Notes under the pieces: model-generated
The model's database searches: none
Told to the model about the DNA's origin: nothing
Seen by the model: only the letters and a program-made list of their open reading frames with translations
Translations under genes and position numbers: made by a program
Source of the DNA: a virus
Lineage: Duplodnaviria; Heunggongvirae; Uroviricota; Caudoviricetes
Virus record (IMG/VR): IMGVR_UViG_3300005660_000003
Location: 10,261 to 74,260 of that record
Direction: 5' to 3' (one strand)
DNA length: 64,000 nucleotides
Part shown: one piece after another, positions 3,371-48,711 of the stretch
How positions within the stretch are numbered: position 1 is the first letter of the stretch
How the letters are laid out: the number at the start of each line of letters is the position of its first letter

Positions 3371-3415
3371 GAATTTAGAAAAAGAAGCGAATATAGAGAA
3401 GTATAAGTAGAGTTT
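3371..3415 (+). promoter_or_regulatory. promoter-like cassette variant (tttagaaaaag...gagaagtataagtag) 26 nt upstream of HNH gene
   Basis: Shares the core with the motifs at 5431, 7757, 33407, 34213 and 16025 (minus). Confidence 0.45.
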
Positions 3416-3440
3416 AAATTTACATCTTGAAGGGAATAAC

Positions 3441-4250
3441 ATGGAAAAGAAGAATTGTACTAAGTGCGGTGAATTAAAAGAATTGGGATTATTTGATAAA
3501 CAGAAAGCTGGCAAATATGGTCGTACATCTAAGTGTAAGTCTTGTAAAAGTATTATTGCTAAAGAGTATGCAGCTAAGAATCCTGATAAAATCAAGGAGG
3601 CGACTTACAAACAGAGTATTATAAGAAAAGAAAGCGGATATTATAAGAAATATGAAGAAATCAATAAAGAAAAACTTAAAAAGTATAGAACTGAGTACGC
3701 CGAACAGAATAGGGCGTGGATCGTTGAAAAGAAAAGTGAACACTATTTTAAAAATAAAGAAAAACATTTAGAAATTAGTAAAAAGTTTGCACAAGAAAAC
3801 AAGGAAAAAGTTAATGGTTACAAAAAGAAATACAAACTTAATAACAAGGATAAATCAAATTTGCAAGTTAGAGAAAGACGAAAAGTAGATCATAATTTTA
3901 GAATAAAAAGTGCATTAAGATCTAGGGTTTATATAGCCTTAAAAGCACAAAATGCTAAAAAGGTAAAACACACTATGGAATTAATTGGGTGTTCCCCAAA
4001 GTTTCTTTATAAGTATATTGAATCAAAGTTTACACAGGGTATGACTTGGAAAAATCATAAGGTTGACGGATGGCACATAGACCATGTTATTCCCTGCTCA
4101 TCTTTTGATCTAACAGATCCTGCTCAACAACTTAAATGTTTTCACTACACAAATCTCCAACCACTCTGGTCCACGCGTGACATTGCTATGTCTTACGGCG
4201 AAGATCCAGAGTACGTTGGAAACCTTGAAAAGGCTGATAAAATTATTTAG
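3441..4250 (+). CDS. HNH homing endonuclease (N-terminal CxxC...CxxC zinc finger, Lys-rich NK(E/D)KI repeats, C-terminal HNH: GMTWKNH..GWHIDHV.PC...NLQPLW)
   Basis: The conserved C-terminal HNH module is shared with four other copies. It is a plus-strand insertion between minus-strand genes. Confidence 0.8.
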   Translation: MEKKNCTKCGELKELGLFDKQKAGKYGRTSKCKSCKSIIAKEYAAKNPDKIKEATYKQSIIRKESGYYKKYEEINKEKLKKYRTEYAEQNRAWIVEKKSEHYFKNKEKHLEISKKFAQENKEKVNGYKKKYKLNNKDKSNLQVRERRKVDHNFRIKSALRSRVYIALKAQNAKKVKHTMELIGCSPKFLYKYIESKFTQGMTWKNHKVDGWHIDHVIPCSSFDLTDPAQQLKCFHYTNLQPLWSTRDIAMSYGEDPEYVGNLEKADKII

Positions 4251-5412
4251 TGACAATACTAATTATTTCTTTATGTTCAATTAAAGCAGCAAATTGTTTC
4301 CTCATGTTAAGGCTCTTTATGAGATTATAGCTAATGTCACCAGAAAAGCATCCACTCTTAACAATTTCAGCAATTCTGTCAACATCCTTTTTCTTATTGA
4401 AGGTTTTTTCTTCAATTATTTTATCAGAATAGTTGATGAGTCTAGAAGATAAAACACTAGCAATATTCTGCTTGTAACCTGAGGTCTCTACTTTACCTAC
4501 TACGGCACTTATCTTGGCGATAGCAGCCTCATGGTCCTTAGCCTCAAAAATATCTTTTGGGGAAGGGACTCTATCTAACTTGTTATTAATGAATAAGGCA
4601 AAGCAGGCTGAGAATTCGGGGCCGACTGAACCCTCTCCTAAAAGCTGAATTAGGTTAAGGGTCTCTGGTGATCCGAAGTCTTCTAAGCTAGATATACTAT
4701 TAAAGTAGTCTGTGGCAAGTCTTGCGTTAGTTTTACCTTTAATCATTTCGGGATTTAACATGAGGAAGTTAATGCAGCGTGAATCTACTCCATCTCTTTC
4801 GGCCCAAGCCGCCCACTCATCAACCGCGAACTTCATTTCTAGTTTAATAAAGCGTGAGGATTGGGCGGAATCAAGATCACATACAATATACTCCCCATTG
4901 GATGGATTGCTAGTAAGGAATACGTGGCAGTCTGAAGGGAGTTTCCAACTGATGAACTCACCACGATCTATAAGCTCTAAGCAAGCCTGAATGACATGAG
5001 TGGCTCCGCGAGTCCAATCATCGAGCAAAAGAATCACTCCACTACCGTCTTTTGGAACCCAAGCTGGCGGTGAATATGAGGTTCTAGTGTTACCCGTCAA
5101 GGCAACAGTATTTTTATAACTATCTATTTGCTTACCTGATGCCCATGCAACACTGCTCCCTTCACTAGCAACATACTCATATTCTATGAAGGGAAACCCG
5201 CATAGATCACCAGCCTGTTCAATTTGGGCCAAGTTTATCTTAACCAAGCCTAATCCATTTTCCTTAGCTATCTGGCACATTAAGGAAGTTTTACCCAGTC
5301 CAGATTCACCCTCAATAAGAATAGAGTTCTTCTTTTTACCAACCTTTTCAAGGTGACGATTGTTATTAATCACGTGATTAAGCACACTTTTTACTTGAGA
5401 AATCTTAAGCAT
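4243..5412 (-). CDS. cobS: MoxR/CobS-like AAA+ ATPase
   Basis: Walker A GESGLGKTS and Walker B VILLLDDW. It has CbbQ/NorQ/CobS-like architecture and is paired with a VWA protein nearby. Confidence 0.7.
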   Translation of the reverse strand: MLKISQVKSVLNHVINNNRHLEKVGKKKNSILIEGESGLGKTSLMCQIAKENGLGLVKINLAQIEQAGDLCGFPFIEYEYVASEGSSVAWASGKQIDSYKNTVALTGNTRTSYSPPAWVPKDGSGVILLLDDWTRGATHVIQACLELIDRGEFISWKLPSDCHVFLTSNPSNGEYIVCDLDSAQSSRFIKLEMKFAVDEWAAWAERDGVDSRCINFLMLNPEMIKGKTNARLATDYFNSISSLEDFGSPETLNLIQLLGEGSVGPEFSACFALFINNKLDRVPSPKDIFEAKDHEAAIAKISAVVGKVETSGYKQNIASVLSSRLINYSDKIIEEKTFNKKKDVDRIAEIVKSGCFSGDISYNLIKSLNMRKQFAALIEHKEIISIVTK

Positions 5413-5430
5413 CTAAAAACTTTCTACGAA

Positions 5431-5473
5431 AAATAGAAAAAACATCAAATCTAGAGAAGTACTAGATAAGGGA
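5431..5473 (+). promoter_or_regulatory. promoter-like cassette aaatagaaaaaa-N8-tagagaagtactagataag, 28 nt upstream of HNH gene
   Basis: Conserved motif family (see findings). Confidence 0.5.
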
Positions 5474-5500
5474 TATGTAATTTACGCTAATTTAAACTGA

Positions 5501-6319
5501 ATGGGGAAATTTGTGAAAACTTGTAGAATTTGTAATATTATAAAGAGTTTTTCTGAATTTGATAAAAATAAAGACAGTAGGGATAAACTTAGGCACGAAT
5601 GTAAGATATGTCTTAAAAAACGCCGCTCAGAACGTTATTTTAAAAATAAAAAACCAAAAGATATTACAAATAAAAAGATTATTAGTGTTAATAAAAAATG
5701 TTGCAAGTGTAAAGAAACTAAGAACTTGGACATGTTTAGTAAAAATAAGAACAGATTTGATGGTGTAAACGGAATGTGTAAAAAGTGTTATGTTACATAT
5801 AAATCTCAATATCAAGTAGAAAATAAAGAAAAGATTAAGCAGTACAACGATATGTATACCGTTAAAAACAAAGTAGCTAGACAAAAATATAAAAAGAAAT
5901 ATAGTTTAGAAAATAAAGATAAAATAAATCAGACTAATAAAAAATATTATTCTAATAACCCGAGTGTTAAAATAGGTAGAAGTTTAAGTGGTAGAGTTAG
6001 AAGTGCTATAAAAAATTCTGGCGGGACAAAATCCCAATCTTCTTGCGAATTTCTTGGATGTACAAGAGATGAAGTCTGTAAGTATTTAGAATCTAAATTT
6101 ACAACAGGGATGACTTGGGAGAATCACGGATTATATGGTTGGCATATAGACCACATAAAGCCGTGCGATTCTTTTGATTTAACAAATCCTGAGCAGCAAA
6201 GAGTTTGCTTTCATTATACCAATCTCCAACCACTTTGGGCGACTCGTGACATAGCAATGAGTTACGGTGAAGGCCCGGATTATGTAGGTAATTTGGAAAA
6301 ACATAACAAGCTATTGTAA
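5501..6319 (+). CDS. HNH homing endonuclease (two CxxC zinc-finger modules plus Lys-rich repeats plus HNH)
   Basis: C-terminal 80 aa are about 80 percent identical to the copy at 7832..8524. Confidence 0.8.
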   Translation: MGKFVKTCRICNIIKSFSEFDKNKDSRDKLRHECKICLKKRRSERYFKNKKPKDITNKKIISVNKKCCKCKETKNLDMFSKNKNRFDGVNGMCKKCYVTYKSQYQVENKEKIKQYNDMYTVKNKVARQKYKKKYSLENKDKINQTNKKYYSNNPSVKIGRSLSGRVRSAIKNSGGTKSQSSCEFLGCTRDEVCKYLESKFTTGMTWENHGLYGWHIDHIKPCDSFDLTNPEQQRVCFHYTNLQPLWATRDIAMSYGEGPDYVGNLEKHNKLL

Positions 6320-6541
6320 TTCCCAAGCCCACGGGCTTTGTCTAAAATTAATGATGCTTTTGGCACTTATATCGTTTTCTTTGAAAAATTCTAATACCTC
6401 TTTTCTAACATCACCTAAGTAGTCTTCATTAAATGGTAAGCTTGTCCATATAATTTTGTGTCCATTATCTAGGGTAAAAATATCCAAGTAACAATAATCC
6501 TTATATAAATAGTCTTTTCTACAAGCAATATATCTTTTCAT
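6311..6541 (-). CDS. small hypothetical protein
   Basis: 76-aa ORF with a 4-nt overlap to the VWA gene. Confidence 0.35.
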   Translation of the reverse strand: MKRYIACRKDYLYKDYCYLDIFTLDNGHKIIWTSLPFNEDYLGDVRKEVLEFFKENDISAKSIINFRQSPWAWELQ

Positions 6542-7725
6542 TTTAGGCCCTCAGCTAGGATTTTTTTTCCGGGGAAATTAACCAATTTAGGGTCTCCCCC
6601 AGCGGTAACCACCCACAAAATTGGCCTAGATCTCATTAAGTACTTTCCCGAAACGTATCCATCGGTAAACATTATAAGGGCGTTATATTTATTGCCTTTA
6701 TTAAGTAACTGGATCACTTCAGTGGGGTCAGTACCGCCGCCGCCCTTTACCTGACTATTCTGCCATTTCTTTTTATTTGAAAAATCAAATTTATCTTGAA
6801 TTCCAAAGTCCCAAGTAACTATCTCTATTTCTACACCAGATTTATTCATATATGAAATTTGATTAAAGAATTCAGAGAGCTGACTAGGACTAATTGACCC
6901 GCTAACGTCTACCCCCACAAGCATTTTTCTTCTTTGGTTTAAGGTTATTGCTGCCTGATCTGGATACCTCTTATTGGGTTTATTTTGTGTAAACTTTATA
7001 ACCTGCTTATCACAAAAGGATTTAAACTGCCGCATAACCTGTCGCCAATCCAGTACTGGTGGAGTTTTAATGTAAAGATTTAGAATAAAATCCCTAAGGT
7101 GTCCGGGAACACTTCCGGGCTGTTTATTAAAGGTGTGCTCATACACCTCTTTCATTTGGTGTTCTATTTGGGCTTTTATAAGCTCCTTCATACCGTCAGG
7201 GATAGGCTCCCCATCTTCTGCTGAGTCCCACAATGGATGCCCGCACACAGTTTTGCCGCCCTGCTTCATGAAGTTGACTAAACCCTTCAACTTCGGGGAC
7301 TTATTGTTTTGATTAGCTTTACACAACTCGTCGTAGTAAAACTTAGTGTCTTTAAATGGTGGAAGATTTAATTCTGGGAAAGAGGTTGGAAGCATAGCGT
7401 TTGGCGGAAGGTAATCTGTTTCGATATATTGATTTATTACCATATCGGCAGCTATGTTATAAATCTCTTTCTCTGCGTAGTTATCCCAATAAATTAAATG
7501 AAACAAACATATATGACCTACTTCGTGTTCCATTAGTCCTATCTTTTGTTTGTCTGTAAGCTTATTAAAATATTCCTCATTAAACCACATATCGATCATC
7601 ATTCCATTAATTTGGCAGCAAGCAGTTGGAATATGATCTGAAAAAGCCTTTTGAATTCCAAGTGCGAGGTGCCCATAGTACGGTGACCGGTACAGAAGCC
7701 CTTTACTACATTGTACTAAATCCAA
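6538..7725 (-). CDS. VWA-domain protein with N-terminal HExxH metallopeptidase-like motif (CobT-like partner of the AAA ATPase)
   Basis: HEVGHICLFH zincin motif. MIDAS-type VGVDVSGSIS motif of the VWA fold. Confidence 0.65.
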   Translation of the reverse strand: MDLVQCSKGLLYRSPYYGHLALGIQKAFSDHIPTACCQINGMMIDMWFNEEYFNKLTDKQKIGLMEHEVGHICLFHLIYWDNYAEKEIYNIAADMVINQYIETDYLPPNAMLPTSFPELNLPPFKDTKFYYDELCKANQNNKSPKLKGLVNFMKQGGKTVCGHPLWDSAEDGEPIPDGMKELIKAQIEHQMKEVYEHTFNKQPGSVPGHLRDFILNLYIKTPPVLDWRQVMRQFKSFCDKQVIKFTQNKPNKRYPDQAAITLNQRRKMLVGVDVSGSISPSQLSEFFNQISYMNKSGVEIEIVTWDFGIQDKFDFSNKKKWQNSQVKGGGGTDPTEVIQLLNKGNKYNALIMFTDGYVSGKYLMRSRPILWVVTAGGDPKLVNFPGKKILAEGLK

Positions 7726-7756
7726 GGTGAACTCCTTTGTTTTAAATTAGGGGTGG

Positions 7757-7800
7757 AAAATAGAAAAAAAGAATAAAAAATGAGAAGTATACTATATGGG
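7757..7800 (+). promoter_or_regulatory. promoter-like cassette aaaatagaaaaaaag-N10-gagaagtatactatatggg, 32 nt upstream of HNH gene
   Basis: Conserved motif family. Confidence 0.5.
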
Positions 7801-7831
7801 CCGTATTTACTATAAATGAAATGAGAATTCA

Positions 7832-8524
7832 ATGGACAAAGACAAAATTAAACAATATAAAAGAGAACACTATCTAGCTAATAAGGAAAAATACCACGAA
7901 GATAATAAAAAATATAGGGAGGAAAACAAAGATAAAATCCGGGAATCAAAGAAACAGTATAATATAAACAATAAGGAAAAGATTAAAGAAAGACAGAAGA
8001 GGTACTACCTAAATAATCAAGATAAAATAAAAAGCTATAGATTCAACAACAAAGAGAAGATTAGTAGTGAAAATAAAGAATATTGTAGGGCAAATAGGGA
8101 TAAAATAAATGCTCAAATAAGACTTAGAAAAAAGACTAACCCTAAACCAATGTTATTAAATAATAGACTTAAGAATAATTTAAGAAGAAGAATTGTTCAT
8201 GTAATACGAGGTAATAATAAATCTGCGGTTACGATGAAACTAATTGGGTGTGATATAGATTTTCTTAAAACCCACTTATCTTCCAAGTTTACTACTGGAA
8301 TGACTTGGGAAAACTATGGTTTATACGGTTGGCACATTGATCATATTAAACCCTGTGCTTCCTTTGATCTTTCAAACCCTATCGAGCAGACTGCCTGCTT
8401 CCACTACACAAATCTCCAACCTTTATGGGCAACTAAAGAAATTGCTCTATCTTATGGAGAGGGACTGGACTACGTGGGAAACCTAGAGAAGGGTTCACTG
8501 AACTTTAGTTCAGCTTCAAGGTAG
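7832..8524 (+). CDS. HNH homing endonuclease (Lys-rich NK(E/D)KI repeats plus HNH, no obvious zinc finger)
   Basis: HNH block GMTWENYGLYGWHIDHIKPC...NLQPLWA. Confidence 0.8.
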   Translation: MDKDKIKQYKREHYLANKEKYHEDNKKYREENKDKIRESKKQYNINNKEKIKERQKRYYLNNQDKIKSYRFNNKEKISSENKEYCRANRDKINAQIRLRKKTNPKPMLLNNRLKNNLRRRIVHVIRGNNKSAVTMKLIGCDIDFLKTHLSSKFTTGMTWENYGLYGWHIDHIKPCASFDLSNPIEQTACFHYTNLQPLWATKEIALSYGEGLDYVGNLEKGSLNFSSASR

Positions 8525-8938
8525 GCTCTTTACGTGAAGAATCACGGCAACAATGAAAGGCACGCAAGCGTGATTATACATGGCTGCATTAAACCCCAGA
8601 AAGAGTGCTTTATGCGATAGCACATCCACTTTACCCAAAAGCTTCATACCTAGGGTCCTACTGGCTTCATCTTTTGAGTTTATCATCATTATAATGTTTT
8701 CTACTTGCTCAGTGGTGTACTCTACTTTGGGGATATACTTAAGGAAAAACTCAATGGGATTGACTATCGGAACCCCTTTCTCACCGTAAGGGCAGATTCT
8801 AGAGATCAACGTATTAGATACAATTACCTCTGCTTTATTTACGTCTTTAACTGTTTCAAAATAGCAAGCATAATCTCTTAGTAATTCCCAATAATAGTCA
8901 TAGCGGCTGTTCGTATAGAAGTGAATCTTAATGGGCAA
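8516..8938 (-). CDS. hypothetical protein (shares SKDEA..L...LLGK motif with 10042..10596)
   Basis: 140-aa ORF. Confidence 0.45.
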   Translation of the reverse strand: MPIKIHFYTNSRYDYYWELLRDYACYFETVKDVNKAEVIVSNTLISRICPYGEKGVPIVNPIEFFLKYIPKVEYTTEQVENIIMMINSKDEASRTLGMKLLGKVDVLSHKALFLGFNAAMYNHACVPFIVAVILHVKSLP

Positions 8939-8949
8939 AATCTTCTCCT

Positions 8950-10035
8950 TTATTCATAATTCCTAATACAAATCATAACTGGAAATCTTGGTATACCATC
9001 AGATGTCAATTCAAAATATCTTATGGTAGCATATAAACCAATTAGAGTATCTGCCTCTTCAAGATATCTAAGTCTTTCGTTATCTGTACCCTTAGGTACA
9101 GCTTCAAACGTTTTGCCATTATCCATTTCAAATTCAAATGTAGGAATTAATTCAAATCTTCCCTTGCCAACTTTCCACCCAATAATTTTGTATTCAAAAT
9201 CTGTGAAGTCTTTTAATTTTAAGAGATCACAACTTCTTTTATTGGGTTGATATAAAGAAGTAATATTTCTTATCATGGTTCCTTCGCTGCCAGAAGAAGC
9301 TAATTTCTTGTGCCAAGAGTATAGTTCTTCTTCTGTTTTTAATATTTTCCACGGTACAATTTTTGTATGCTTTAAACCAATAACAAGTAGATCTAGCTCT
9401 ACTACTCTTTCGTGGTAAGTTTTTTCATTAATAATATCAAAAGCATAGAAAAATATATCCTCCATTCGAGGGTCTGTTGATTTACTCTTGCGGACAATTG
9501 ATATGATCTCCTCAAAAGAATAGGTGTCACTATACAATTCCCCATCTAACACAACATCATCTTTATTAAGTCTAATCAATTCTTCTGTAATATGATTAAG
9601 GCCAACAAGCTCTTTTCCTGTTCGACTAACACATGTTGCAACTCCATCTTTAATGGTTATTATACAACGTATTCCGTCAATTTTAATAGATCCAATAGCT
9701 GGCCAAGAAATTTTATGAGTATAATCTTTATATTTATGGGCCAACATAGGCAGGTTAGGCTTCTCCTCTGGTATAACCTTACTATACCCTTTCCTATCTA
9801 TTTGTTTCTGATGTTTTGCATCAGCTTCCGCAATACACTGCTCCTCTGGGGTTGTCTCATTGCTTCTACCAATATTTTTCCCTTTTAATACATAAACCAC
9901 AGCTTCCTGCATAGCTCCACCCACGGAGCCGTGGGTGACTTTATAGAAGTGGCCCTTGGCATCTTTTCCGGTAGAAATTTCCCATTCTCTTATCTTATCT
10001 TTAGAATCTTTTTTATATAGTTTCAAGTTCTGCAA
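8950..10035 (-). CDS. ATP-dependent DNA ligase (T7-like size)
   Basis: Nucleotidyltransferase motif I KIDGIRC and motif DGELY. The 361-aa length is similar to minimal phage DNA ligases. Confidence 0.65.
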   Translation of the reverse strand: MQNLKLYKKDSKDKIREWEISTGKDAKGHFYKVTHGSVGGAMQEAVVYVLKGKNIGRSNETTPEEQCIAEADAKHQKQIDRKGYSKVIPEEKPNLPMLAHKYKDYTHKISWPAIGSIKIDGIRCIITIKDGVATCVSRTGKELVGLNHITEELIRLNKDDVVLDGELYSDTYSFEEIISIVRKSKSTDPRMEDIFFYAFDIINEKTYHERVVELDLLVIGLKHTKIVPWKILKTEEELYSWHKKLASSGSEGTMIRNITSLYQPNKRSCDLLKLKDFTDFEYKIIGWKVGKGRFELIPTFEFEMDNGKTFEAVPKGTDNERLRYLEEADTLIGLYATIRYFELTSDGIPRFPVMICIRNYE

Positions 10036-10041
10036 AGCTCC

Positions 10042-11436: not shown

Positions 11437-11685
11437 CTAGTATTGTGGGCCTGTAGAAATGATTCGGTTTCCGAAGGGTCTAATGGTGGTGCGTTGACCA
11501 GTTGACCAACGTATTACCGTGTTCGTCCCGAAGGGACGCACTTGTCCAGTAACTGTACTATGCCCATTTTGTTTAACGGTTATTTTGCTACCATTTCCAA
11601 AACGTTGCGAACTACGAAAACCCCAACCTGCTAACGATGTTTCTGCAAAACATAACAAACAAATAATAAATACTAAAGTTTTCAA
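11437..11685 (-). CDS. small secreted protein (signal peptide, Gly/Thr/Arg-rich)
   Basis: N-terminal hydrophobic leader MKTLVFIICLLCFAETSLA. The locus is locally GC-richer. Confidence 0.4.
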   Translation of the reverse strand: MKTLVFIICLLCFAETSLAGWGFRSSQRFGNGSKITVKQNGHSTVTGQVRPFGTNTVIRWSTGQRTTIRPFGNRIISTGPQY

Positions 11686-11891
11686 ATTACCCTCCTAGGA
11701 TAAGGTGGCAATACCACCCTCAATTGATAAAACACCTTTCCGGCAATCACACAAAATGGTTGCCTTTTTCTATTTTTACTTTCTGTGGGAACTTTACAAA
11801 TAATCTTTTCCACGGAAGTACACTGCCCCATATAATGTAATGTTAATATGGGCTTCCCAGCGGCCTTAGACGCTGAACTTATTATACTTAC

Positions 11892-12335
11892 TCAAGGTTT
11901 TTTGCTTTCCAAAACAATATTATTATAAGTAAAAGGAATACTGCTAGCTATATACCCACTTGCACCAATATTTAAATTACTGTAATTGTACTGCCAATCC
12001 CAATAATCAACTGCGTTTTTAGCATTTATTGGTAAATCTGCCCGAACATATTTAACTAATATTTGCCTAATATGATCTAGAGTATTATAAATTTCTGAAC
12101 GTATTTGTAAAGCGGTCGGGCCTTTGTAGTCCGCTATTCCATGCAAAGTTAAAACTTTATCCACATCGTCTTCTGATAAGTAACTTACTAATGTAAGCCC
12201 CATAACAAAAGAACCAACATCGGCACTTGTAAGTAAAGTGTAGACTTCGTCTAGTCCTTTTTCTGTAAGACTTATACGATGTTTTAAGTTATGTTTTTTA
12301 TATTCTTCTATAAGAAAAACCTGTATTGAATTCAA
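11892..12335 (-). CDS. hypothetical protein
   Basis: 147-aa ORF. Confidence 0.45.
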   Translation of the reverse strand: MNSIQVFLIEEYKKHNLKHRISLTEKGLDEVYTLLTSADVGSFVMGLTLVSYLSEDDVDKVLTLHGIADYKGPTALQIRSEIYNTLDHIRQILVKYVRADLPINAKNAVDYWDWQYNYSNLNIGASGYIASSIPFTYNNIVLESKKP

Positions 12336-12338
12336 GTC

Positions 12339-13016
12339 TTATACTCCAAAAGCTTCTAGGGAATACTTAAAAGGGTTACCTTCTAGGGCTTTTACAAGAT
12401 CAAGCATTTCTTGAGCCACTTCTCTGGTTTCAGCTTGAGCGTCTGGCTTTAGTCTTAATCCCCACAAGTGAAGAAAAGACAATAGAGAGCCAGTCCAAAT
12501 AAAAGTAGTATTAAGACTTAAAGGTAAAACTGTGCGGGCCTGCTCTTTGGAAACCCCGAGATCAATTAGGTCCTGATAAGCTTGTTTGCAAAATTCTATT
12601 ACCTGTCGTTCAATAATAGAGCATGATTCTTGATATTCCACAAGACCCTCGCTACCCTGCTTAGAAGAAGTGGATTGTTTCCTCCACTCTTTAATAGTGG
12701 TGTAGGAATCACTAAAGTCTATATATCGCCCGGAAATGCTATTTATTGAACTGTTCGGCTCTGGAGAAGTTCCCACTTCCATTCCTATTTCATGTTTTCG
12801 AAGTTGCCTCTCTACATAAATCGGGCAAGAGATTCTAAACTGTAGCTGAGGATGTCTAAACACACTTATATGCTTATGTTCTTTTAGATACTTAAGTAAC
12901 TTCTCATCCCTTTGATCGAAGATGGACTTGTTCTTACCATAACTTACACGGGCGGCATTTACTACCATTAAATCATTACCAAAAACTTCTAAAAGTTCAA
13001 CCAAGTTACACCTCAC
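12339..13016 (-). CDS. thyX: flavin-dependent thymidylate synthase ThyX-like (diverged)
   Basis: SVFRHPQLQFRISCPIYVERQLRKH aligns to the ThyX block H.VF.F.I.G.SR....QLVRHR. The downstream ...S...RY is diverged and carries an insertion. Confidence 0.5.
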   Translation of the reverse strand: MRCNLVELLEVFGNDLMVVNAARVSYGKNKSIFDQRDEKLLKYLKEHKHISVFRHPQLQFRISCPIYVERQLRKHEIGMEVGTSPEPNSSINSISGRYIDFSDSYTTIKEWRKQSTSSKQGSEGLVEYQESCSIIERQVIEFCKQAYQDLIDLGVSKEQARTVLPLSLNTTFIWTGSLLSFLHLWGLRLKPDAQAETREVAQEMLDLVKALEGNPFKYSLEAFGV

Positions 13017-14862: not shown

Positions 14863-15228
14863 TTAATCCTTCAGTTGTTTAAAAAAGGCCAAATATAAAG
14901 CATATTCCTCAAGAGAAAGAAGTTTAACATGCTTTTCAATAGTAGACTCATAAGGTGAATCAAAGCCATAACTGATAACATTTTCATAAACTTCAGTACC
15001 ATAAGATACCAATAACCAATCTGGATCGTCATCTTCTGGCAGGCATTCACATTCTATCTCTACATCAAATCCGGGGAAAAGTTTATCTAGGCCCACGCAG
15101 AAGTCCGCATCCCCAAGAACTATTAATATTTTATTTTCTGTGCGATGTATGTAAGACTGCCCATAGTCTCCTCCATGTTCTTGTAAATCGAGCTTATTTT
15201 TTATCATGAACAATGTATAGCGATTCAT
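14863..15228 (-). CDS. hypothetical protein
   Basis: 121-aa acidic ORF. Confidence 0.45.
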   Translation of the reverse strand: MNRYTLFMIKNKLDLQEHGGDYGQSYIHRTENKILIVLGDADFCVGLDKLFPGFDVEIECECLPEDDDPDWLLVSYGTEVYENVISYGFDSPYESTIEKHVKLLSLEEYALYLAFFKQLKD

Positions 15229-15313
15229 TTTATATCCTTTTCCTTATTTTGCCCAAGAAACTGTAATATTGCTTTTTTCATAGTTAAGGCCGTAAGGCCA
15301 TTTGTCTTTTATG

Positions 15314-15372
15314 GTTAGAGTTCTAAACTCCTTTCACAATGCTAATCGCATTGTTCATCCCGTTTAGAACTC
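15314..15372. other. nested hairpin element (11-bp outer stem gagttctaaac/gtttagaactc enclosing 7-bp inner stem caatgc/gcattg) in a 420-bp non-coding gap
   Basis: Inverted repeats read directly from the sequence. Possible ncRNA or terminator-like element. Confidence 0.4.
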
Positions 15373-15647
15373 ATTTTAACTCTTTATAGCAGAAGTCAGT
15401 GCATACCTTCCCCCTTTGAGCGGACCATGTAAATAAAAATTTACACAGATACATACTAAGGAAGGTTAATTAAAATCCTTCAAATGCTGGTAAGGGGAAT
15501 TACTACACCCAGCCGAAGCTCATATTTCATCCCATTATTTTTTCTGGGAAATAGTAGGTTGTATTAGGTTCGTATGCCGAATTGCTAATTTGTTTATGAA
15601 GCCCTACGTGCTCCATGATAGTTGTGACTATTAAATTATACAAAATA

Positions 15648-15923
15648 TTATTGTAGTATTTTGTTAGCTTTTTCTTTTAGTTTTTCTTTATTCTTCTTTT
15701 TGTATTTTTCTAAATATCCAGATTCTTTTTGTTTTTGGTATGACTTTTTAGATCTTATTTTAATCTTATCTTTATTTTCTAAACGGTATTTTTTATTAAT
15801 TAAACTCATACACAATTTGCATTTAACTCTATACCCACCCTTACACTTTTTATGTTTGGAGAAAAGATTAATATTTTTCATTTCTTTACAGTTTGGACAA
15901 ATCTTTTCCATTTTTTCTCTCAT
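15648..15923 (-). CDS. stand-alone N-terminal module of the HNH family (CxxC...CxxC zinc finger plus Lys-rich repeats, no HNH domain)
   Basis: CPNCKEMKNINLFSKHKKCKGGYRVKCKLC resembles the N-termini of the 3441 and 5501 HNH genes. It is preceded by the same promoter cassette in minus orientation. Confidence 0.55.
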   Translation of the reverse strand: MREKMEKICPNCKEMKNINLFSKHKKCKGGYRVKCKLCMSLINKKYRLENKDKIKIRSKKSYQKQKESGYLEKYKKKNKEKLKEKANKILQ

Positions 15924-16024: not shown

Positions 16025-16066
16025 TTATATACTATACTTCTCTAGATTCTTCTTTTTTTCTAAAAA
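16025..16066 (-). promoter_or_regulatory. promoter-like cassette (minus orientation: tagaaaaaaagaagaatctagagaagtatagtatataag)
   Basis: Reverse complement of the plus sequence matches the cassette. It lies about 100 nt upstream of the 15923 start. Confidence 0.45.
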
Positions 16067-17151: not shown

Positions 17152-17301
17152 GAGTCTTTTCCTTTACATGAGTGGTAATTTGTTAGTAATTCCAATGAAT
17201 TTTCTATTTAGGCGATATATTTTATAAATATAAACTAATTGGATCCTCCCAGATTAAGGGTATAAATTAGAAAAATTATAAGAAAAAGAGAAGAATATAA
17301 T

Positions 17302-17613
17302 ATGAAGTTATCTGGTGTTAAAAAATCTAATTCGTGTTCAATTTTATTAGGTTGCTCTCCAGATTTTTTTAAATCTTACATAGAAGAAAAGTTTACAACC
17401 GGGATGACTTGGGAAAATCATGGGGTATATGGATGGCACCTAGATCATATAAAACCTTGTAATTCTTTCGATTTATCAAATCCAGAACAACAAAAAGAGT
17501 GTTTTCATTATACTAATATACGTCCCTTGTGGGCTACAACCGATATAGCGATGAGCTACGGAGAAGGCCCGGACTACATTGGGAATTTAGAGAAAGGAAA
17601 GACTGTCACATAA
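17302..17613 (+). pseudogene. 5'-truncated HNH endonuclease copy (HNH domain only, 103 aa)
   Basis: Retains GMTWENHGVYGWHLDHIKPC...NIRPLWA but lacks the zinc-finger/repeat N-terminus. The promoter cassette abuts the ATG. Confidence 0.6.
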
Positions 17614-18431: not shown

Positions 18432-18465
18432 TATAAATATCCCATAAGTAGTTTAAAATAAAGAT

Positions 18466-18538
18466 TGCGGCACACGGGATTTGAACCCGCAACCTCCGGT
18501 TTGGAAAACCAGTACTCTGCCAATTGAGTTAATGTCGC
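18466..18538 (-). tRNA. tRNA, probable Gly (anticodon UCC)
   Basis: Hand-folded cloverleaf: acceptor 7 bp with one A-C mismatch; D arm actc/aattggcag/gagt; anticodon stem ctggt/accgg; loop tttccaa; T arm gcggg-ttcaaat-cccgt. No encoded CCA. Confidence 0.55.
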
Positions 18539-18649
18539 ATAAATAGTTAGATGGTTCCTTAAGTGGACTTGTCTCGAATGATCTAGGCCGGTATCCAGAT
18601 CACCGTCTATATCTAACTAAGTATAAACCTCAGAATCATTCTTCGGTTT

Positions 18650-18985: not shown

Positions 18986-19096
18986 TGAGTCCGGCAGGAT
19001 TCGAACCTACAATCTACTAATCCCCGAGCACTTCTTGTTTACGGGAAAATTCGAAGCACAGTATAGTGTGCCGCGTTTGCATTTCGCCACAGACTC
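18986..19096 (-). ncRNA. tRNA-like element of atypical length (111 nt): good acceptor stem and T arm (gtagg-ttcgaat-cctgc) but oversized interior with extra hairpins
   Basis: Acceptor gagtctg/cggactc pairs over 7 bp. The interior contains hairpins gcaca-ctatac-tgtgc and cccg-N15-cggg. It cannot be folded by hand into a canonical cloverleaf. Confidence 0.3.
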
Positions 19097-33406: not shown

Positions 33407-33446
33407 AATAGAAAAAAAGAAGAAAAAAGAGAAGTATTATATAGGA
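33407..33446 (+). promoter_or_regulatory. promoter-like cassette aaatagaaaaaaagaagaaaaaagagaagtattatatagg
   Basis: It lies 34 nt upstream of the Met at 33480 (signal-peptide start). This implies that 33480 is the real start rather than the ORF-track start at 33450. Confidence 0.5.
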
Positions 33447-34212: not shown

Positions 34213-34254
34213 AAAATAGAAAAAAACAAGAAAAAAGAGAAGTATATAATAGGG
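34213..34254 (+). promoter_or_regulatory. promoter-like cassette aaaatagaaaaaaacaagaaaaaagagaagtatataataggg (contains TATAAT)
   Basis: 40 nt upstream of the 34295 ATG. Confidence 0.5.
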
Positions 34255-35395: not shown

Positions 35396-35741
35396 CATAG
35401 CTGACTCTATAAAAAATGTTGCTAACACTGAGAATATAAGTAATATTGAGCTTGAAAAGGCTTACATTGCTTACATGGGTGCGTATCAATATGGAAAACT
35501 ACTTGACTTTGAAGGCTGTGAAGACTTCGCTGAATTATTTGACAAGATGCGGCTCGTTACCACTCGCCTACAATATGTTAGGAATGCTAAACTGAGTGAT
35601 GCGGCCTATGCAGAATTAAAAGAATTCGAAAAAGATGATAAGGGAAACCCCATTCCTTTTGATTCCGAGCATCAGGCTGCCTTTATGGAGAAGGCTTATC
35701 AAGTAGCGGAAGGTCTAAAGGCAGCAATTGAACGTGAATAA
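35313..35741 (+). CDS. secreted hypothetical protein (start uncertain, overlaps upstream ORF)
   Basis: Signal-peptide-like N-terminus. 142 aa. Confidence 0.35.
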   Translation: MLIRNFFIFTAICVSQILVIAQTSPQSNIADSIKNVANTENISNIELEKAYIAYMGAYQYGKLLDFEGCEDFAELFDKMRLVTTRLQYVRNAKLSDAAYAELKEFEKDDKGNPIPFDSEHQAAFMEKAYQVAEGLKAAIERE

Positions 35742-36798
35742 AACAAGGCATTATGTTTATAAAATAACAAATAAGATTAATGGTAAGTTTTATATTGGTA
35801 TTAAATCTTCTAGGCTTAACTTTTTAGATACTAATTATTATGGAAGTGGGAGGTTAATTAAAGCTTCTATTAAAAAACACGGTAAAGAAAATTTCTTAAG
35901 AGAAGTTCTTTTTGAATTTAGAACTCGTGAAGAAGTCTTAAGTAAAGAAAAAGAATTGGTTACCAAAGATTTAGTTAGTAGCCATAATTGTTACAATATA
36001 ACAGTTGGTGGTGGAGGATTTACCAATCTCAATTATCGTTCACTTCCTATAAAGAGTCTTGATTTTATGGGTAAAATAACTTACTATAAGTCTATGCTTG
36101 ATGCCTCACTTTTAGTTAAGGGATGTAATAGAACTGGCGTGCGTAATGCTATTATTGGTAAAGCAAATACCCATAATAATTTATATTGGTCTAAAGCTGA
36201 TAAAGACTTTTTAATCAAGAAAAATAGAAACTCTATTACCCCGTGCTTTTCACTAGATGAAAATAGTAGTAAAATTTACTATAATTCATTTTCAGAAGCC
36301 TCAAAGGCTACAGGGGTAGCTTGTAGTATAATCAGGAGATGTGTGGTTTCTGGTAAGGGCACTGGTGGCGGATTTAATTGGTATAAAACTACATCAAAAT
36401 TAGACTCATCTAGTTTCCGTGGAAAAAATTATTTAACTAGAAAACCTTGTATTTCTATAGATAAGACTGGTGCAAAGAAATATTATTCTTCTATTACTGA
36501 AGCTAGTAAGCAAACTGGTATTTGTAATACAAATATTTGTTTATGCTTAAAATTAAAAGCACGTTCTGCTGGTGGATTATCTTGGTATTATACCGATTCT
36601 GAAACAAATAAATTTAATGGAGTCGGTCCCCGCACCAAGTGTTACGAAAGTACAGATTCTAGAGGAAATAAAAAACGTTATAAATCCTTAAAAGAAGCTG
36701 CAAAAAGCAACAATTACAGTGTAGATTATATCTCTAAAGCTGCTAAAAATAATTTATTAGTTGCTGGATTAAAATGGGAGAGAATAAATGCTAAATAA
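35728..36798 (+). CDS. GIY-YIG homing endonuclease with C-terminal repeated helix-turn-helix (NUMOD/IENR-like) DNA-binding modules
   Basis: HYVYKITNKINGKFYIGIKS is GIY-(10)-YIG. Repeats YY(N/S)S(F/I)(S/T)EASK.TG. Overlaps the intein-containing gene start by 11 nt. Confidence 0.8.
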   Translation: MNVNKTRHYVYKITNKINGKFYIGIKSSRLNFLDTNYYGSGRLIKASIKKHGKENFLREVLFEFRTREEVLSKEKELVTKDLVSSHNCYNITVGGGGFTNLNYRSLPIKSLDFMGKITYYKSMLDASLLVKGCNRTGVRNAIIGKANTHNNLYWSKADKDFLIKKNRNSITPCFSLDENSSKIYYNSFSEASKATGVACSIIRRCVVSGKGTGGGFNWYKTTSKLDSSSFRGKNYLTRKPCISIDKTGAKKYYSSITEASKQTGICNTNICLCLKLKARSAGGLSWYYTDSETNKFNGVGPRTKCYESTDSRGNKKRYKSLKEAAKSNNYSVDYISKAAKNNLLVAGLKWERINAK

Positions 36799-38773
36799 TA
36801 CTGAGGGGTGGATTCACGACCCACGAGCCATAGAAGAGGTGATGTCTTCTCTTGAGCAACCATTCTTTTTTCAAGCGGCTGACGTTTTACAAGCTACTGG
36901 TAAGGGTAAATCAGCTTACCTTTATGAGAATTTTAAAAAGTTAAATATTCCATATCCCAAGCCACTCCAAGCTGGCGAAGGAGACTGTTTTAATCCGTCT
37001 TCATTAGTTACTATGGCTGACGGCTCTAAGAAATCTATCATTGATATTAAGGTTGGTGATTTAGTAATTTCTGCAATTGGTAATATTAAAAAGGTTTTAT
37101 CGGTATTTAATAAACCGTTTACTGGTAAAATGATTAAAATAACTACTCAGAGTTACCATAAACCATTGATTTGCACACCTGACCATAAATTAGTTCAATG
37201 TGTTAGTAAAAATACCACTAGATGGAATCGAGCGGATCTATTAGATCTTAAAGATTATATTCTAGTTTCAAAAATGCCTAACATAAATAATGAAAAAATA
37301 TACGATTTATCACAAATTTGTCCGAAGTCTGAGAACGTAGGTACTGATCAAATTAAAGCAATTAGATCTAATAAATTAGCTAACAGATTTATTAAGAATT
37401 CAGAAAAATTATTTTGGTTATTCGGTATGTATTTAGCTGAGGGAAGTTGTGACTTAGGTGGTGACAAATTACCAAAAAGAATTACATTTAACCTATCTAA
37501 TGATGAAATTTTAATAGCTGAAAAAATTAAACAATACATTAAAGATGTTTTTAATCTTGATGCTATTATTTGTAGTGTCCCATCGAAACCAAGTGTTTTG
37601 TACGTAAGAATTGGTAGTTATTTATTTGCTAATTTTGTTAAACATTTTTGTACCGGAAACGTTTATTCTAAATCATTTAGTGATGACTTTAAAATAGAAT
37701 CATTTTCTAATAAGTTAGCATTGCTTGAGGGATGGATGGATGGTGATGGATGGGAAGATAGAAAAGGCGTAACCGTAAGTGAAAATTTAGCTTATAATTT
37801 TTTTGATATAGCTAATTCTTTGGGCATGAATGTTAGAATTGATCATCGTAAAGCATACAAACAAAGTAAAAAAAGTTATTCGGTCGATATTAATTGTAGT
37901 GTTAAAACTTATGAAAAAGCTAAAGTTTTTACGAAAACTAGACTAAGTTATAATTTTATCACTAAGGTAGGTAAAGCTGCTAAAATAAAAAATGTAGAAT
38001 ATATTGAGCCAGAAACTGACAAGGTTTATTGTATTGAGGTAGAGGGTGATAACTCATTTATCTGTGACGGTTATGGTGTTCATAACTGCGTCTCTCACGC
38101 CACATCTTTGGCACTCGACACTTTATCTGTTACTGAAATTGTAAATGGCGATAGAGAAGTTTGGGTTGCAAGATCCGCTAGCGAATACGTTTATCATGTT
38201 TCTAGGATGGTAATCGGTAAAGGTAGATTTGGCTCCGGCGGAGGGTCCGTGAATGCTTATGCCGCTAAGGGTCTTCAGGAATATGGTAGTTTACGACGAA
38301 CCCAATATAACTCTGTAGATTTAACTAAATACTCTGAGAAAAGAGCGTATTCTTGGGGTCGTGGTTCTATTCCTAAAGATCTTTATGACATAGCTAAGGC
38401 CCAGAATATTGGTAAATTTGCAGCTATTAAAAATTTTAGTGATGCGTGCGACAGTCTTTATAATGGATATCCAATTGTTGTTGCGTCAAGCCAAGGGTTT
38501 TCTTCTACGAGAGATAAGGATGGTTTTTGTAGACCTCAGGGTAGCTGGATGCATTCCATGAGTGTACTTGGATATAAAGACGGTAGTCGTCCCGGTGTTG
38601 CAATTTGTAATTCTTGGCCCAGCTTTTTACCCGGAGAAAATGAGTTTGGGTTACCACCATCGTGTTTCTTCTGCGATGCTTCTGTCTTTGATAATATGTG
38701 TAAAATGGGTGACACTTTTTCATTAGCCGGATTTAACGGTTTTAAACCACGTGCCGACGCTCGTGTAATTTAA
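36788..38773 (+). CDS. papain-like (C1 family) cysteine peptidase interrupted by an intein
   Basis: The 294-aa extein has Q-x5-C (QAGEGD|C), ...HSMSVLGYKDGS... and NSWP...GENEFG, matching papain Q19/C25/H159/N175 plus NSWG...GENGY. Confidence 0.7.
   Translation: MLNNTEGWIHDPRAIEEVMSSLEQPFFFQAADVLQATGKGKSAYLYENFKKLNIPYPKPLQAGEGDCFNPSSLVTMADGSKKSIIDIKVGDLVISAIGNIKKVLSVFNKPFTGKMIKITTQSYHKPLICTPDHKLVQCVSKNTTRWNRADLLDLKDYILVSKMPNINNEKIYDLSQICPKSENVGTDQIKAIRSNKLANRFIKNSEKLFWLFGMYLAEGSCDLGGDKLPKRITFNLSNDEILIAEKIKQYIKDVFNLDAIICSVPSKPSVLYVRIGSYLFANFVKHFCTGNVYSKSFSDDFKIESFSNKLALLEGWMDGDGWEDRKGVTVSENLAYNFFDIANSLGMNVRIDHRKAYKQSKKSYSVDINCSVKTYEKAKVFTKTRLSYNFITKVGKAAKIKNVEYIEPETDKVYCIEVEGDNSFICDGYGVHNCVSHATSLALDTLSVTEIVNGDREVWVARSASEYVYHVSRMVIGKGRFGSGGGSVNAYAAKGLQEYGSLRRTQYNSVDLTKYSEKRAYSWGRGSIPKDLYDIAKAQNIGKFAAIKNFSDACDSLYNGYPIVVASSQGFSSTRDKDGFCRPQGSWMHSMSVLGYKDGSRPGVAICNSWPSFLPGENEFGLPPSCFFCDASVFDNMCKMGDTFSLAGFNGFKPRADARVI
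36986..38086 (+). mobile_element. intein (367 aa) with LAGLIDADG endonuclease domain, inserted immediately before the catalytic Cys of the peptidase
   Basis: CFNPSSLVTMADG (block A). CTPDH (block B). LFGMYLAEGS and LLEGWMDGDGW. Ends GVHN|C. Confidence 0.8.
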
Positions 38774-42244: not shown

Positions 42245-42247
42245 TTA

Positions 42248-46384: not shown

Positions 46385-46396
46385 TGCGTGGCTCCC

Positions 46397-46606: not shown

Positions 46607-46616
46607 TATATATTTT

Positions 46617-47303
46617 CTAAACTAAAAAATCACCAAGTAATTTGCCGGGTATTAAAAATTTGGTGTGGGACTCTTTGTTTTTATCATTTAGATAAGACAA
46701 ATGATCTATGCCAGTTCCATAATGCATGGCAAAAAAGTCCCTTTTCTTTACTGCTGGGTAAAAATATTCCATTTCTTGCCACTCGGTGTCTTTCCTAGAT
46801 AATGGGCGTGGCCAATCATCTAATACTAATTCTTTTCTTATGCAAAAGTAAGAAGATTTTATAACAAAGGTATACTTCTTACCAAAGCCAATGTGCGGGC
46901 AAATTAATCCAATGGACTTATTCCCCTGAAACATATCGTTATATTCTTTTAGCCAGCCACCTCTTTTAGAAACCGCCATTTCTGCTATGAAAAAATAATA
47001 TTGATAATCACTCTTTAATACTTCTAAGTAACCTGCTCTATATGCTCCAATATCTTCACCGACATTTTGTCTTTCAAAGTATTTTATATTACTATATCTT
47101 TTGTCTAGGGCAATTCCCATTTTAGAAATGGTGTCAATTTCTTCCCGACTTCTTGATCTTCTATTTTGTATGTTTGTTTCAAACTTATTGTGAATTATAA
47201 ATATGTCGTGATCAAAACCTAAGTCAAAACTAAGTAAAGATTTAAGACATCGAGATACTCTATTGTAGTGAAAAGCTGGAACTATTAAACAAAATTTATT
47301 CAA
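46617..47303 (-). CDS. putative glycosyltransferase (GT-A-like)
   Basis: N-terminus CLIVPAFHYNRVSRCLKSL resembles the GT2 start. Confidence 0.4.
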   Translation of the reverse strand: MNKFCLIVPAFHYNRVSRCLKSLLSFDLGFDHDIFIIHNKFETNIQNRRSRSREEIDTISKMGIALDKRYSNIKYFERQNVGEDIGAYRAGYLEVLKSDYQYYFFIAEMAVSKRGGWLKEYNDMFQGNKSIGLICPHIGFGKKYTFVIKSSYFCIRKELVLDDWPRPLSRKDTEWQEMEYFYPAVKKRDFFAMHYGTGIDHLSYLNDKNKESHTKFLIPGKLLGDFLV

Positions 47304-47310
47304 GGTGATC

Positions 47311-47856
47311 TCATTTTTTTCTTAGTAAGCAGGAAGTATTTGCGTCTGTAGAAATGATTTTAACAATTTCGAAATCGAATCCAAATAAGTAAGTGAAAGC
47401 ATCCTTACTTAATCTCCAGTAGTCTCCAAAGCTTCCTGCTTCCCCATGATAATCTGGTGCCTTGGGACCCCAAGGTGAATCGACTATAACATATCCACCC
47501 CTATTTAATAAAGCATCAAAAGCTTCTGATAGCTCAGTAATGTGTGGTATATGTTCTATTACTTGAGTGATGTGGATTAGGTCGTAAGTAATTCCATTAG
47601 ACCAGTCGGTTGGTTCTACAATATTCCCAACAATATCTGGCTCCCATTTTTTATCAAAATCTAAAGTGGTTAGTGTATACCTACTAAATAGACGGGGATT
47701 GTCTAAGCCCGGCTTACCTTTATGGGTTCGCGGATTACCAGCGGTCCCTACCATTAACATGGTAGGATTTAATAAAGTTACATTGTTTAGATTGATAATA
47801 GCGGCAAAATCCGCTTCAGCGGCTTCGCAGTCTTGTCTCGTTTGGCTTTTACTCAT
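47311..47856 (-). CDS. putative methyltransferase-like protein
   Basis: 181-aa ORF. Weak class I MTase-like features. Confidence 0.35.
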   Translation of the reverse strand: MSKSQTRQDCEAAEADFAAIINLNNVTLLNPTMLMVGTAGNPRTHKGKPGLDNPRLFSRYTLTTLDFDKKWEPDIVGNIVEPTDWSNGITYDLIHITQVIEHIPHITELSEAFDALLNRGGYVIVDSPWGPKAPDYHGEAGSFGDYWRLSKDAFTYLFGFDFEIVKIISTDANTSCLLRKK

Positions 47857-48425
47857 TTATATATTTTTCCCCAGATTTCTGAACAATGTCTATATTTTTC
47901 TATTAGGCAATATTTATATCCAATGTTATCTAGTATTTTAATCAATTGTTCTTTATCTTTTATTGGTGATGTGTGGGAAGGGTTATATTTTTCAACCTCT
48001 TCTTTTGTTTCACCAATTGGCACAATAAAGAATAAGACTTTACGAACAACATTAATAAGAGTTTTCAGGGCCACTTCTAGGTCTAGGGCGTGTTCTAAAG
48101 TATGAGAACAAAATATATAATCAATGGATCCTTCTTCAAATTCACACAGTGTATGAAAATCTGAATTCAAAACTATGTGTCCACGCTCCTTAGCCTTGGC
48201 CAACTTTTCATCTGATAAATCTACACCAATTATATTGATAAATCCCATATCTTTGAGAGCATCTAAACCTCTACCTTCACCACATCCCACGTCTAATACG
48301 TGGGCTTCACGATCTATATCTTTGAAGGTTTCTCGTATTGCGGCTTCTATTGAGTCTCCCCAAGGTGATCCATATGACCAAGCAGATCCAGACACTTGGA
48401 TATCTATGTATTCTTTATCTAACAA
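47853..48425 (-). CDS. class I SAM-dependent methyltransferase
   Basis: [11 protein letters not shown]...GVDLS...[10 protein letters not shown] (Methyltransf_11-like). Confidence 0.7.
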
Positions 48426-48711
48426 GGTGATTCCTTATTCCATTGAGGGTATTAAAATTAACAAGGAAAATAGAAAATTTAAGAGAAAAGGTATGACTTG
48501 GGAAAACCGTGGAAAGGGCGGCTGGCATATTGATCATGTTCTTCCGTATGCAAGTTTCGATCTTTCAGACCCTGAACAACAGAAGATTTGTTTCCATTAC
48601 ACAAACCTACAACCATTATGGGCTACTACCGCGATTGCAATGAGCTACGGGGAAGGGTCAGAATATGTTGGAAACATTGAAAATCTGATAAACCCTATCC
48701 TCTTAATTTAA
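48406..48711 (+). pseudogene. HNH endonuclease remnant (HNH domain only)
   Basis: [46 protein letters not shown] with no N-terminal DNA-binding modules. The ORF-track frame overlaps the opposite-strand MTase. Confidence 0.5.

Follow-up and report, generated by a model that had tools for sequence, protein, structure and literature searches.

Members of the HNH-like gene family

The 64,000-nucleotide (nt) stretch of phage DNA analysed here (the window; positions 10,261 to 74,260 of IMG/VR record IMGVR_UViG_3300005660_000003) contains five copies, designated A to E, of a gene coding for a predicted HNH-type endonuclease, and a sixth piece of the same family, F. Copies A to E share a C-terminal core of ~100 amino acids (aa), which F lacks. 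Within the window, tblastn matched A to E with one another at E 1e-30 to 1e-56, and F with the N-terminus of A at E 1e-14. A search of the six-frame translation with a hidden Markov model (HMM) of the family recovered exactly these six pieces and nothing else, which bears out the original prediction of at least six pieces of one family; all six open reading frames (ORFs) are present. A weak repeated tblastn match of the core at 62784-62698 (minus strand) was dropped, as it was without support from the family HMM. A seventh member, G, lies beyond the start of the window (L097:14462-14797, 111 aa), consists of the core only and is on the same strand as its neighbours, while extension past the other window end revealed no further family member. 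The copy number in the phage, over the window and its extensions, is at least seven pieces.

Copies A, B and C lie on the plus strand among minus-strand genes, with starts 2060 and 2331 nt apart, and flank an ATPase gene and a VWA-like gene, an arrangement that had been correctly described from the sequence. Most of the family genes are oriented opposite to their neighbours. All five plus-strand copies run 8–17 nt into the 3′ end of the convergent neighbour, the overlap being 8 nt for A (with the 3′ end of the ATPase gene) and D (with the PTH2 gene), and 9 nt for B (with a 76-aa gene at 6311-6541) and C (with the gene at 8516-8938). On the ORF maps, A to E and F each have a start codon of their own and lie in gaps between genes, outside any intron or intein.

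Table 1. Positions in the window of the family members, the promoter-like motif copies and adjoining features.
Feature	Position	Strand	Description
Motif of A	3376..3403	+	TAGAAAAA-N12-GAGAAGTA; ends 38 nt before gene A
Copy A	3441..4250	+	269 aa; HMM E 3e-96; complete
MoxR/AAA-type ATPase gene	4243-5412	-	Adjoins copies A and B
Motif of B	5434..5461	+	Pattern search, repeat finder
Copy B	5501..6319	+	272 aa; complete
DUF2201 metallopeptidase/VWA-like gene	6538-7725	-	Between copies B and C
Motif of C	7761..7789	+	Pattern search, repeat finder; immediately upstream of finger-less C
Copy C	7832..8524	+	230 aa; Lys-rich repeats and core, without zinc finger; HMM match from position 33
Non-coding stretch downstream of F	15229..15647		419 nt; no recognisable family remnant
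Piece F	15648..15923	-	91 aa (87 aa from ATG at 15911); zinc finger and Lys-rich repeats; HMM E 1e-12
Motif of F	16035..16062	-	Pattern search; inverted-repeat pairs I3 and I5
Motif of D	17268..17295	+	Ends 7 nt upstream of D
Copy D	17302..17613	+	103 aa; complete core only; every conserved Cys, His, Asp and Asn kept
Motifs outside the HNH family	33409-33436, 34217-34244	+	Pattern search
Copy E	48406..48711	+	101 aa; partial degenerate core

The copies differ in how much of the family architecture they retain. In copy A, a single CxxC...CxxC zinc finger (C6, C9, C32, C35) is followed by helical repeats rich in Lys and by an HNH-like core (DNA 4018-4232), and B has two zinc fingers (C8/C11/C34/C37; C67-70/C93/C96), repeats at residues 94-172 and a core at 181-267. 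Copy C, which had been counted with A and B as a third full-length gene, does not qualify, and by its sequence lacks the zinc finger. The proposal that the N-terminal modules differ holds, with one finger in A, two in B and none in C. The protein encoded by C is identical to the NCBI entry 'hypothetical protein [Chitinophagaceae bacterium]' HRA10091.1.

Copies D and E had both been described as keeping only the HNH domain, which is correct for D and too generous for E. Copy D, the protein of which recurs unchanged on 20 contigs, is most similar to B (75%) and starts at the same domain boundary as G (HMM positions 142-145), both keeping all conserved core residues. The best short homolog of D, P0121, was rejected as a positional ortholog, since it lies on a 2-kb contig in a different context, and P0370 was rejected as a positional counterpart on the same ground of context. 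Copy E keeps ~65 core residues; the helix segment before G-M-T-W is missing, Tyr stands in place of two conserved Cys, and Ala occupies the position nine residues past the conserved Asn, where N, E or D is usual. It overlaps both neighbours (by 20 and 17 nt). Because of the lost core residues and helix, the lack of the promoter-like motif described below, and its being squeezed into a 269-nt gap, E is probably inactive. No N-terminal remnant was found upstream of D or E in any frame, as anticipated.

Piece F was expected to retain only the zinc finger and Lys-repeat N-terminus, and a decayed core was looked for downstream of it and not found. It most resembles the N-terminus of A (49% over 75 aa), and together with the non-coding stretch fills a 966-nt gap between the metallophosphoesterase gene and the gene at 14863-15228. 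In strain L093, F has an in-frame 12-nt deletion within its repeats. We rejected the idea that F is the stump of an Endonuclease_7-type gene, such as stands at the same site in the relative L101, since F has Lys-rich repeats and a K-E-S-G-Y segment specific to A. Transfer RNA (tRNA) and Rfam scans of the gaps around F and D gave no match. The decay attributed to the truncated copies is thus apparent in the degenerate E and F, and is only a possibility for C, D and G, the last two of which keep all conserved core residues.

A bipartite promoter-like motif, TAGAAAAA-N12/13-GAGAAGTA, was found seven times in the window by pattern search, compared with none expected from shuffles. Five of the seven copies are upstream of A, B, C, D and F, and the other two, at 33409 and 34217, head a plus-strand block. 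A repeat finder placed the motif copies of B, C and D and those at 33.4 and 34.2 kb in one direct family (D2), and coupled the motif of A with that of F as the inverted pair I5 (arm 3374-3405). Only the downstream half of the motif precedes G, and E is without it. Because the motif is absent from the relatives' loci, it looks like a promoter class of the phage that the endonuclease genes use, and not like part of a mobile cassette. Endonuclease genes of phage T4 use T4 promoters. The plus-strand block headed by the two remaining copies lies amid an otherwise minus-strand genome and codes for a methyltransferase-like protein with a hydrophobic N-terminus, small membrane-like proteins, a GIY-YIG gene and an intein-bearing gene; the GC skew changes sign at 34-40 kb.

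The genes surrounding the family form a replication and nucleotide-metabolism module (MoxR-like AAA ATPase, DUF2201 metallopeptidase/VWA-like protein, DNA ligase, ThyX, PNKP, metallophosphoesterase, PTH2, dCMP deaminase and ribonucleotide reductase (RNR)). ENA contig ERZ27275351:k141_530864 (75,199 bp) contains the window at 100% identity, and the same phage recurs in many metagenome assemblies at 99.8-100% identity. Extension past both window ends did not close the genome into a circle; there is also a contig of 117,774 bp. Megablast of window positions 3000-9000 found no closely related cultured phage. One assembly of the phage was binned with a Chitinophagaceae metagenome-assembled genome, and the phage group with the shared promoter-like motif possibly infects Bacteroidota.

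Architecture and predicted nuclease core

The full architecture of the family comprises zero to three N-terminal four-cysteine zinc fingers, which may resemble those of Stc1 and Hpy99I, basic helical repeats of ~15 residues each (pattern Y-x3-N-K-E-K), and the C-terminal core, the motif of which begins W-H-x-D-H. In an alignment of 127 sequences, the residues of W-H-x-D-H and Y-T-N-L-Q-P-L-W are invariant or nearly so, and D199, H200 and N223 (HMM columns) are found in all 127, including A to E and G. The conserved general-base His (of D-H) stands at the end of strand 1 and the conserved Asn before strand 2, as is characteristic of HNH (His-Me finger) nucleases. The residue nine positions past this Asn is N, E or D in 102 of the 127 sequences (Asp in A, B and D; Glu in C; Asn in G; Ala in E). 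By comparison with the canonical motif, this column is a candidate for the metal ligand, the alternative candidate being an invariant Asn in G-N-L-E-K. Conservation is 94-99% at HMM columns 169, 204, 218 and 220, where two Cys, a third Cys and a His form a probable structural zinc site.

AlphaFold2 models of B and D (predicted local distance difference test scores of 92 and 86) both contain the beta-beta-alpha unit of the HNH/His-Me finger superfamily. The model of B has zinc ribbons at residues 5-37 and 64-96 and five basic helices at residues 94-172, followed by a compact core at 181-267 with the order strand-strand-helix. Foldseek searches against viral models returned proteins labelled HNHc or HNH endonuclease, and Mimivirus L246, at E 1e-10 to 1e-4, and a fold search with the full-length model also matched Hpy99I, CAD and PacI. 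On account of the fold models and the residue conservation, we accept the core as a divergent HNH-type (beta-beta-alpha-metal) nuclease at the level of fold and motif, with nuclease activity as a prediction.

Assignment to Pfam Endonuclease_7 was rejected. The nuclease domain has no match to PF02945, and only the N-terminal finger is common to this family and the true PF02945 protein of L101 (44% over 34 aa). Among the PHROGs, B falls in phrog_1035 ('endonuclease VII') at E 1e-25, and the core alone in phrog_28061, which is listed as of unknown function.

The wider family is very large and its members are almost all unnamed. Homologs of B at E<=1e-5 number more than 7,293, and 34,633 cluster representatives (50% identity), in phages and giant viruses, match D at E<=1e-3. 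Zinc fingers number zero in 53 of 238 relatives, one in 150, two in 23 and three in 12, and only four of the relatives are core-only forms shorter than 140 aa. Core-only proteins of 86-122 aa recur in other phage contigs and begin at the same domain boundary. A metagenomic homolog, P0005 (311 aa), has two tandem cores, the first without the His and the Asp-His (G-W-Y-I-N-C) and the second intact, which exemplifies, within the wider family, decay after an internal duplication; two cores are likewise present in P0046 and P0168.

Age of the copies and their insertion sites in relatives

The cores in the window have diverged far from one another. Protein identity between copies is 57-75% over 91 columns (63-79% over 70 residues), which falls short of the ~80% that the original prediction gave for the C-terminal ~80 aa. 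Comparison of the window with itself by the repeat finder recovered the same five cores as 215-nt copies at 63-76% identity, which matches the core DNA identity of 63-76% between copies and places them above 40%. The long identical DNA strings reported earlier were not found: the longest exact string common to any pair is 10-20 nt, and the 15-mer that had been quoted is exact once only, in D, with one or two mismatches in the other four copies.

Codon-aligned cores gave 0.70-1.04 synonymous (pS) and 0.12-0.25 nonsynonymous (pN) differences per site. The low pN together with saturated pS indicates that the cores have long been under purifying selection. The window copies are 57-75% identical to one another, compared with 70-77% to homologs on unrelated contigs. 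A bootstrapped neighbour-joining tree of the 91 core columns did not resolve the branching order and did not group the window copies as a clade, the best pair, B-D, appearing in 35% of bootstraps. Because synonymous sites are saturated and exact strings reach only 10-20 nt, the copies are, as judged from these sequence measures, old paralogs or separate acquisitions, and not recent duplicates. The suggested series of births within this genome is contradicted by copies that are no closer to one another than to homologs on unrelated contigs, and that are not monophyletic.

Nor do the copies appear to act as substrates for genome rearrangement, as had been put forward. Exact identity of at most 20 nt makes them poorly suited to recombination, and the window is collinear, at 99.8-100% identity, with the same-species contigs compared (L001, L003, L089 and L092-L094). 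In one contig of 1.7 kb (L007; ENA ERZ27275116 k141_65261), window 20448-20308, in reverse, is joined to 5603-7214 across an 8-nt overlap, which shortens B to 195 aa. The contig is either a chimera produced in assembly or a rare variant with a rearrangement or deletion.

Comparison of insertion sites, which the original prediction had put forward as a check, showed that sites in relatives are empty or differently filled, as expected of free-standing selfish insertions. A scan of IMG/VR with the ATPase as a single protein gave no match, and an alignment-based scan returned relatives at ~40% identity. The close relative L008 (ATPase 71% and VWA-like protein 60% identical) carries one family member only, at the B site and in the same orientation, 84 nt from the ATPase start compared with 88 nt in the window, and 48% identical to B. 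Its A site is empty, with 1 nt between the ATPase stop and the start of the next gene, compared with the ~950-nt A cassette in the window, and its C site holds an unrelated 375-aa gene. There is no family member at the C site of L100. In L100 and in 80 distant relatives from IMG/VR, the VWA-like gene adjoins the ATPase gene, with no family member within 8 kb.

The sites of D and F vary in the same manner. In L100 and L102, an opposite-strand LAGLIDADG gene stands directly upstream of the metallophosphoesterase gene, beside the D site. At the F site, L102 has ~108 nt in place of the 966-nt gap, and L101 has a true Endonuclease_7 gene with the same finger; L101 carries a full-length family member elsewhere, between rIIB and GP88. 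Among cultured Flavobacterium 'elemo' phages, five of 68 near-identical records have a family member at one locus, where it replaces two other ORFs, and other elemo strains have one at a different genome locus. Related genomes therefore show presence/absence polymorphism at the same site, as is the case for free-standing homing endonuclease genes, of which a sporadic, site-variable distribution is the signature (PMC2988022, PMC10448857).

Several further nuclease genes were observed in the relatives. The LAGLIDADG_3 genes upstream of the metallophosphoesterase gene are free-standing and lie at 9280-9969 (minus strand) in L100 and 9283-9969 (minus strand) in L102. The latter also has a GIY-YIG/NUMOD3 gene next to thyX and a DUF723 gene after the gene for the RNR small subunit (11563-12360 and 6439-7128, both plus strand). 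In L008 (1939-4374) and L102 (16216-18651), the DNA ligase gene is fractured into an N-terminal part with a Hint/intein segment, a 276-280-aa gene for a DUF7487 and Vsr-like (DUF559/MTES_1575) endonuclease, and a C-terminal part with an intein segment, which is the 'fractured gene/split intein' arrangement of PMC2677866. The phage group is rich in selfish nuclease genes.

Proposed homing and alternative explanations

The closest known systems are the free-standing HNH homing endonuclease genes mobA-E of T4-like phages, for example MobE between nrdA and nrdB (PMC2988022, PMC2790892). Like the family described here, the mob genes are intron-less and intergenic, lie between conserved nucleotide-metabolism and replication genes, form several paralogs, and are sporadic and in some cases defunct (PMC2988022, PMC2790892). 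In Mob proteins the HNH domain is N-terminal and the zinc finger C-terminal, whereas the window family has the reverse order, a core that fits no Pfam HNH model, and an activity that is predicted only. The T5orf172 and IPA-HNH families of Vibrio phage ICP1 (Barth et al. 2023, PMC10448857) similarly combine one nuclease domain with varying DNA-binding modules, occur in many copies beside essential genes, include frameshifted or split inactive copies, and have HNH domains too divergent for Pfam profiles. The ICP1 families carry a C-terminal AP2 module and have experimental support; in contrast, the window family has an N-terminal zinc finger and Lys-rich helices, and is known from sequence and models. 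By analogy, the multi-copy pattern matches that described for T4 and ICP1 (PMC2988022, PMC10448857).

Sequence (25-36% identity by tblastn) and fold (Foldseek E down to 7e-10) place the proteins of phrog_1035 and phrog_28061 in this family. They include proteins of Flavobacterium elemo phages, p100 of Rhizobium phage 16-3, and proteins of Klebsiella and Pseudomonas phages, with giant-virus homologs including Mimivirus L246. Their names, 'endonuclease VII' or 'HNH endonuclease', were given by similarity only, the former stemming from the common zinc finger. The restriction enzyme Hpy99I (PDB 3fc3), a beta-beta-alpha-metal nuclease with Cys4 zinc fingers, matches over ~60 residues with a root-mean-square deviation of 10.5 Å, mainly in the zinc finger; it has a partner methyltransferase and, unlike the window genes, is not a free-standing phage gene.

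We propose, with a probability of roughly 0.7, that the phage has been repeatedly colonised by one family of free-standing HNH-type (His-Me finger) homing-like endonuclease genes, the insertions being old and some of them truncated. The zinc fingers and repeats would target DNA, and the core would cut it. The family most likely spreads by intron-less homing: the nuclease would cleave a gene-less relative near the insertion site during mixed infection, and the cleaved genome would acquire the gene with its flanks through recombinational repair. The copies would be either ancient paralogs or genes acquired separately from a very large pool in the environment. One genome offers a natural series of states, from complete genes (A and B) through a finger-less form (C), an intact core only (D and G) and a degenerate core (E) to a finger-only, putatively DNA-binding stump (F).

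Several points weigh against this proposal. Regarding the nuclease, the core has no match to any Pfam, NCBIfam or PADLOC model at E<=1, and a core profile matched no chain among PDB sequences at E<=10. Regarding mobility, the site-level comparison for A, B and C comes from one close relative, L008, the B-site gene of which may be an ortholog that descended vertically. Copies A to D are present in every same-species contig, and no gene-minus allele was found within the species; ongoing homing was therefore not observed. In addition, active homing genes are not separable from domesticated nucleases by bioinformatics, according to the authors of the ICP1 study (PMC10448857).

The leading alternative, which we regard as possible though a good deal less probable, is that these genes are descendants of homing endonucleases now kept for a phage function, such as exclusion of co-infecting relatives or satellites, breakdown of host DNA, or recombination and repair. 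Such domestication is documented in ICP1 (PMC10448857), and would account both for fixation in the species, A, B, C and D differing little or not at all among all 17-20 same-species contigs, which come from different samples, and for the link to a phage promoter class, the motif being common to two other phage transcription units. The strong purifying selection on the core and the tight packing against neighbouring genes are also consistent with it. However, the family is sporadic among relatives and its sites are variable, degenerate members such as E and F are not expected if the function is needed, and species-wide fixation is also the expected end state of successful homing.

The truncated members allow two further interpretations. 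It is improbable, though conceivable, that the core-only proteins (D, G and their 86-122-aa kin) and the finger-only F are retained modules acting in trans and not products of decay. They could form a split endonuclease, with F targeting and D cutting, or could act as dominant-negative or immunity factors that modulate the full-length paralogs or the enzymes of competitor phages. That D and F keep the promoter-like motif of the full-length genes, and that D is invariant across 20 contigs, would fit such a role. Less probable still is the more specific proposal that D and F are the two parts of one enzyme, through the splitting of a gene by rearrangement or as a split endonuclease in trans. The two lie 1.4 kb apart, divergently on either side of the same metallophosphoesterase gene and each with the motif; their 91 and 103 aa add up to the complete family architecture, D keeps all conserved core residues, and the domain boundary at which D starts is also the start of core-only proteins elsewhere. 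Against this, F is closest to A and D to B, and the two sites are independent in relatives, with a LAGLIDADG gene on one side and an Endonuclease_7 gene or nothing on the other. Origin from one gene by inversion is unlikely, and presupposes that the metallophosphoesterase gene once lay on the other strand.

A recent series of duplications within the genome, with repeats that drive rearrangement and truncated copies as snapshots of ongoing decay, is just as doubtful and is largely refuted by the saturated synonymous sites: the ~2-kb spacing of A, B and C, the B-D pair (75% identical in the core) and the L007 junction at 5603, inside B, would fit it, but the core DNA identity, the short exact strings, the absence of monophyly and the collinear same-species contigs do not, and the other side of the L007 junction, at 20308, lies outside any family copy in a short contig that may be a chimera.

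Multi-copy families of selfish nucleases are already known in T4 and ICP1, and the phenomenon itself is ordinary and not new. The present family adds a large HNH clade that Pfam, NCBIfam and PADLOC do not cover, so that its members are left without annotation or bear wrong names ('endonuclease VII', 'tail fiber' or 'prophage protein'); many annotations would be put right by a curated model. Tests of target site and domain function are straightforward, since relatives allow the gene-less junctions to be reconstructed, and the promoter-like motif marks a transcription class in an uncultivated phage group.

The window contains other selfish elements. A 356-aa SegE-like GIY-YIG endonuclease with NUMOD/I-HmuI-like repeats (35728-36798, plus strand; Pfam SegE_GIY-YIG 3.5e-6, I-HmuI_NUMOD-like 3e-10) is a second type of free-standing homing endonuclease, and is followed by a 661-aa protein with an intein and a LAGLIDADG-like domain (36788-38773, plus strand; Pfam Intein_splicing 1.7e-11, Hom_end_hint, LAGLIDADG_3). 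A LAGLIDADG_3 intein lies between the two Ribonuc_red_lgC segments of the RNR large subunit (~24513-27719, minus strand; called as 1068 aa), and the RNR of L101 also has an intein. The GIY-YIG gene and two inteins in the same genome fit a lineage rich in selfish elements.

About 7 kb past the window end, an opposite-strand 121-aa ORF (L106 1725-2090, minus strand) ending ...CEDCKLTQWKNQPISLEIHHVNGDRKKN... has no Pfam match at E<=0.01; it resembles a different, canonical HNH motif and may be truncated. Within the window, a 111-nt Rfam tRNA match of 39 bits at 18986-19096 (minus strand) was not called by ARAGORN, and may be a tRNA with an insertion or intron; a tRNA-Gly (18465-18539) and a tRNA-Leu (21987-22070) are nearby.

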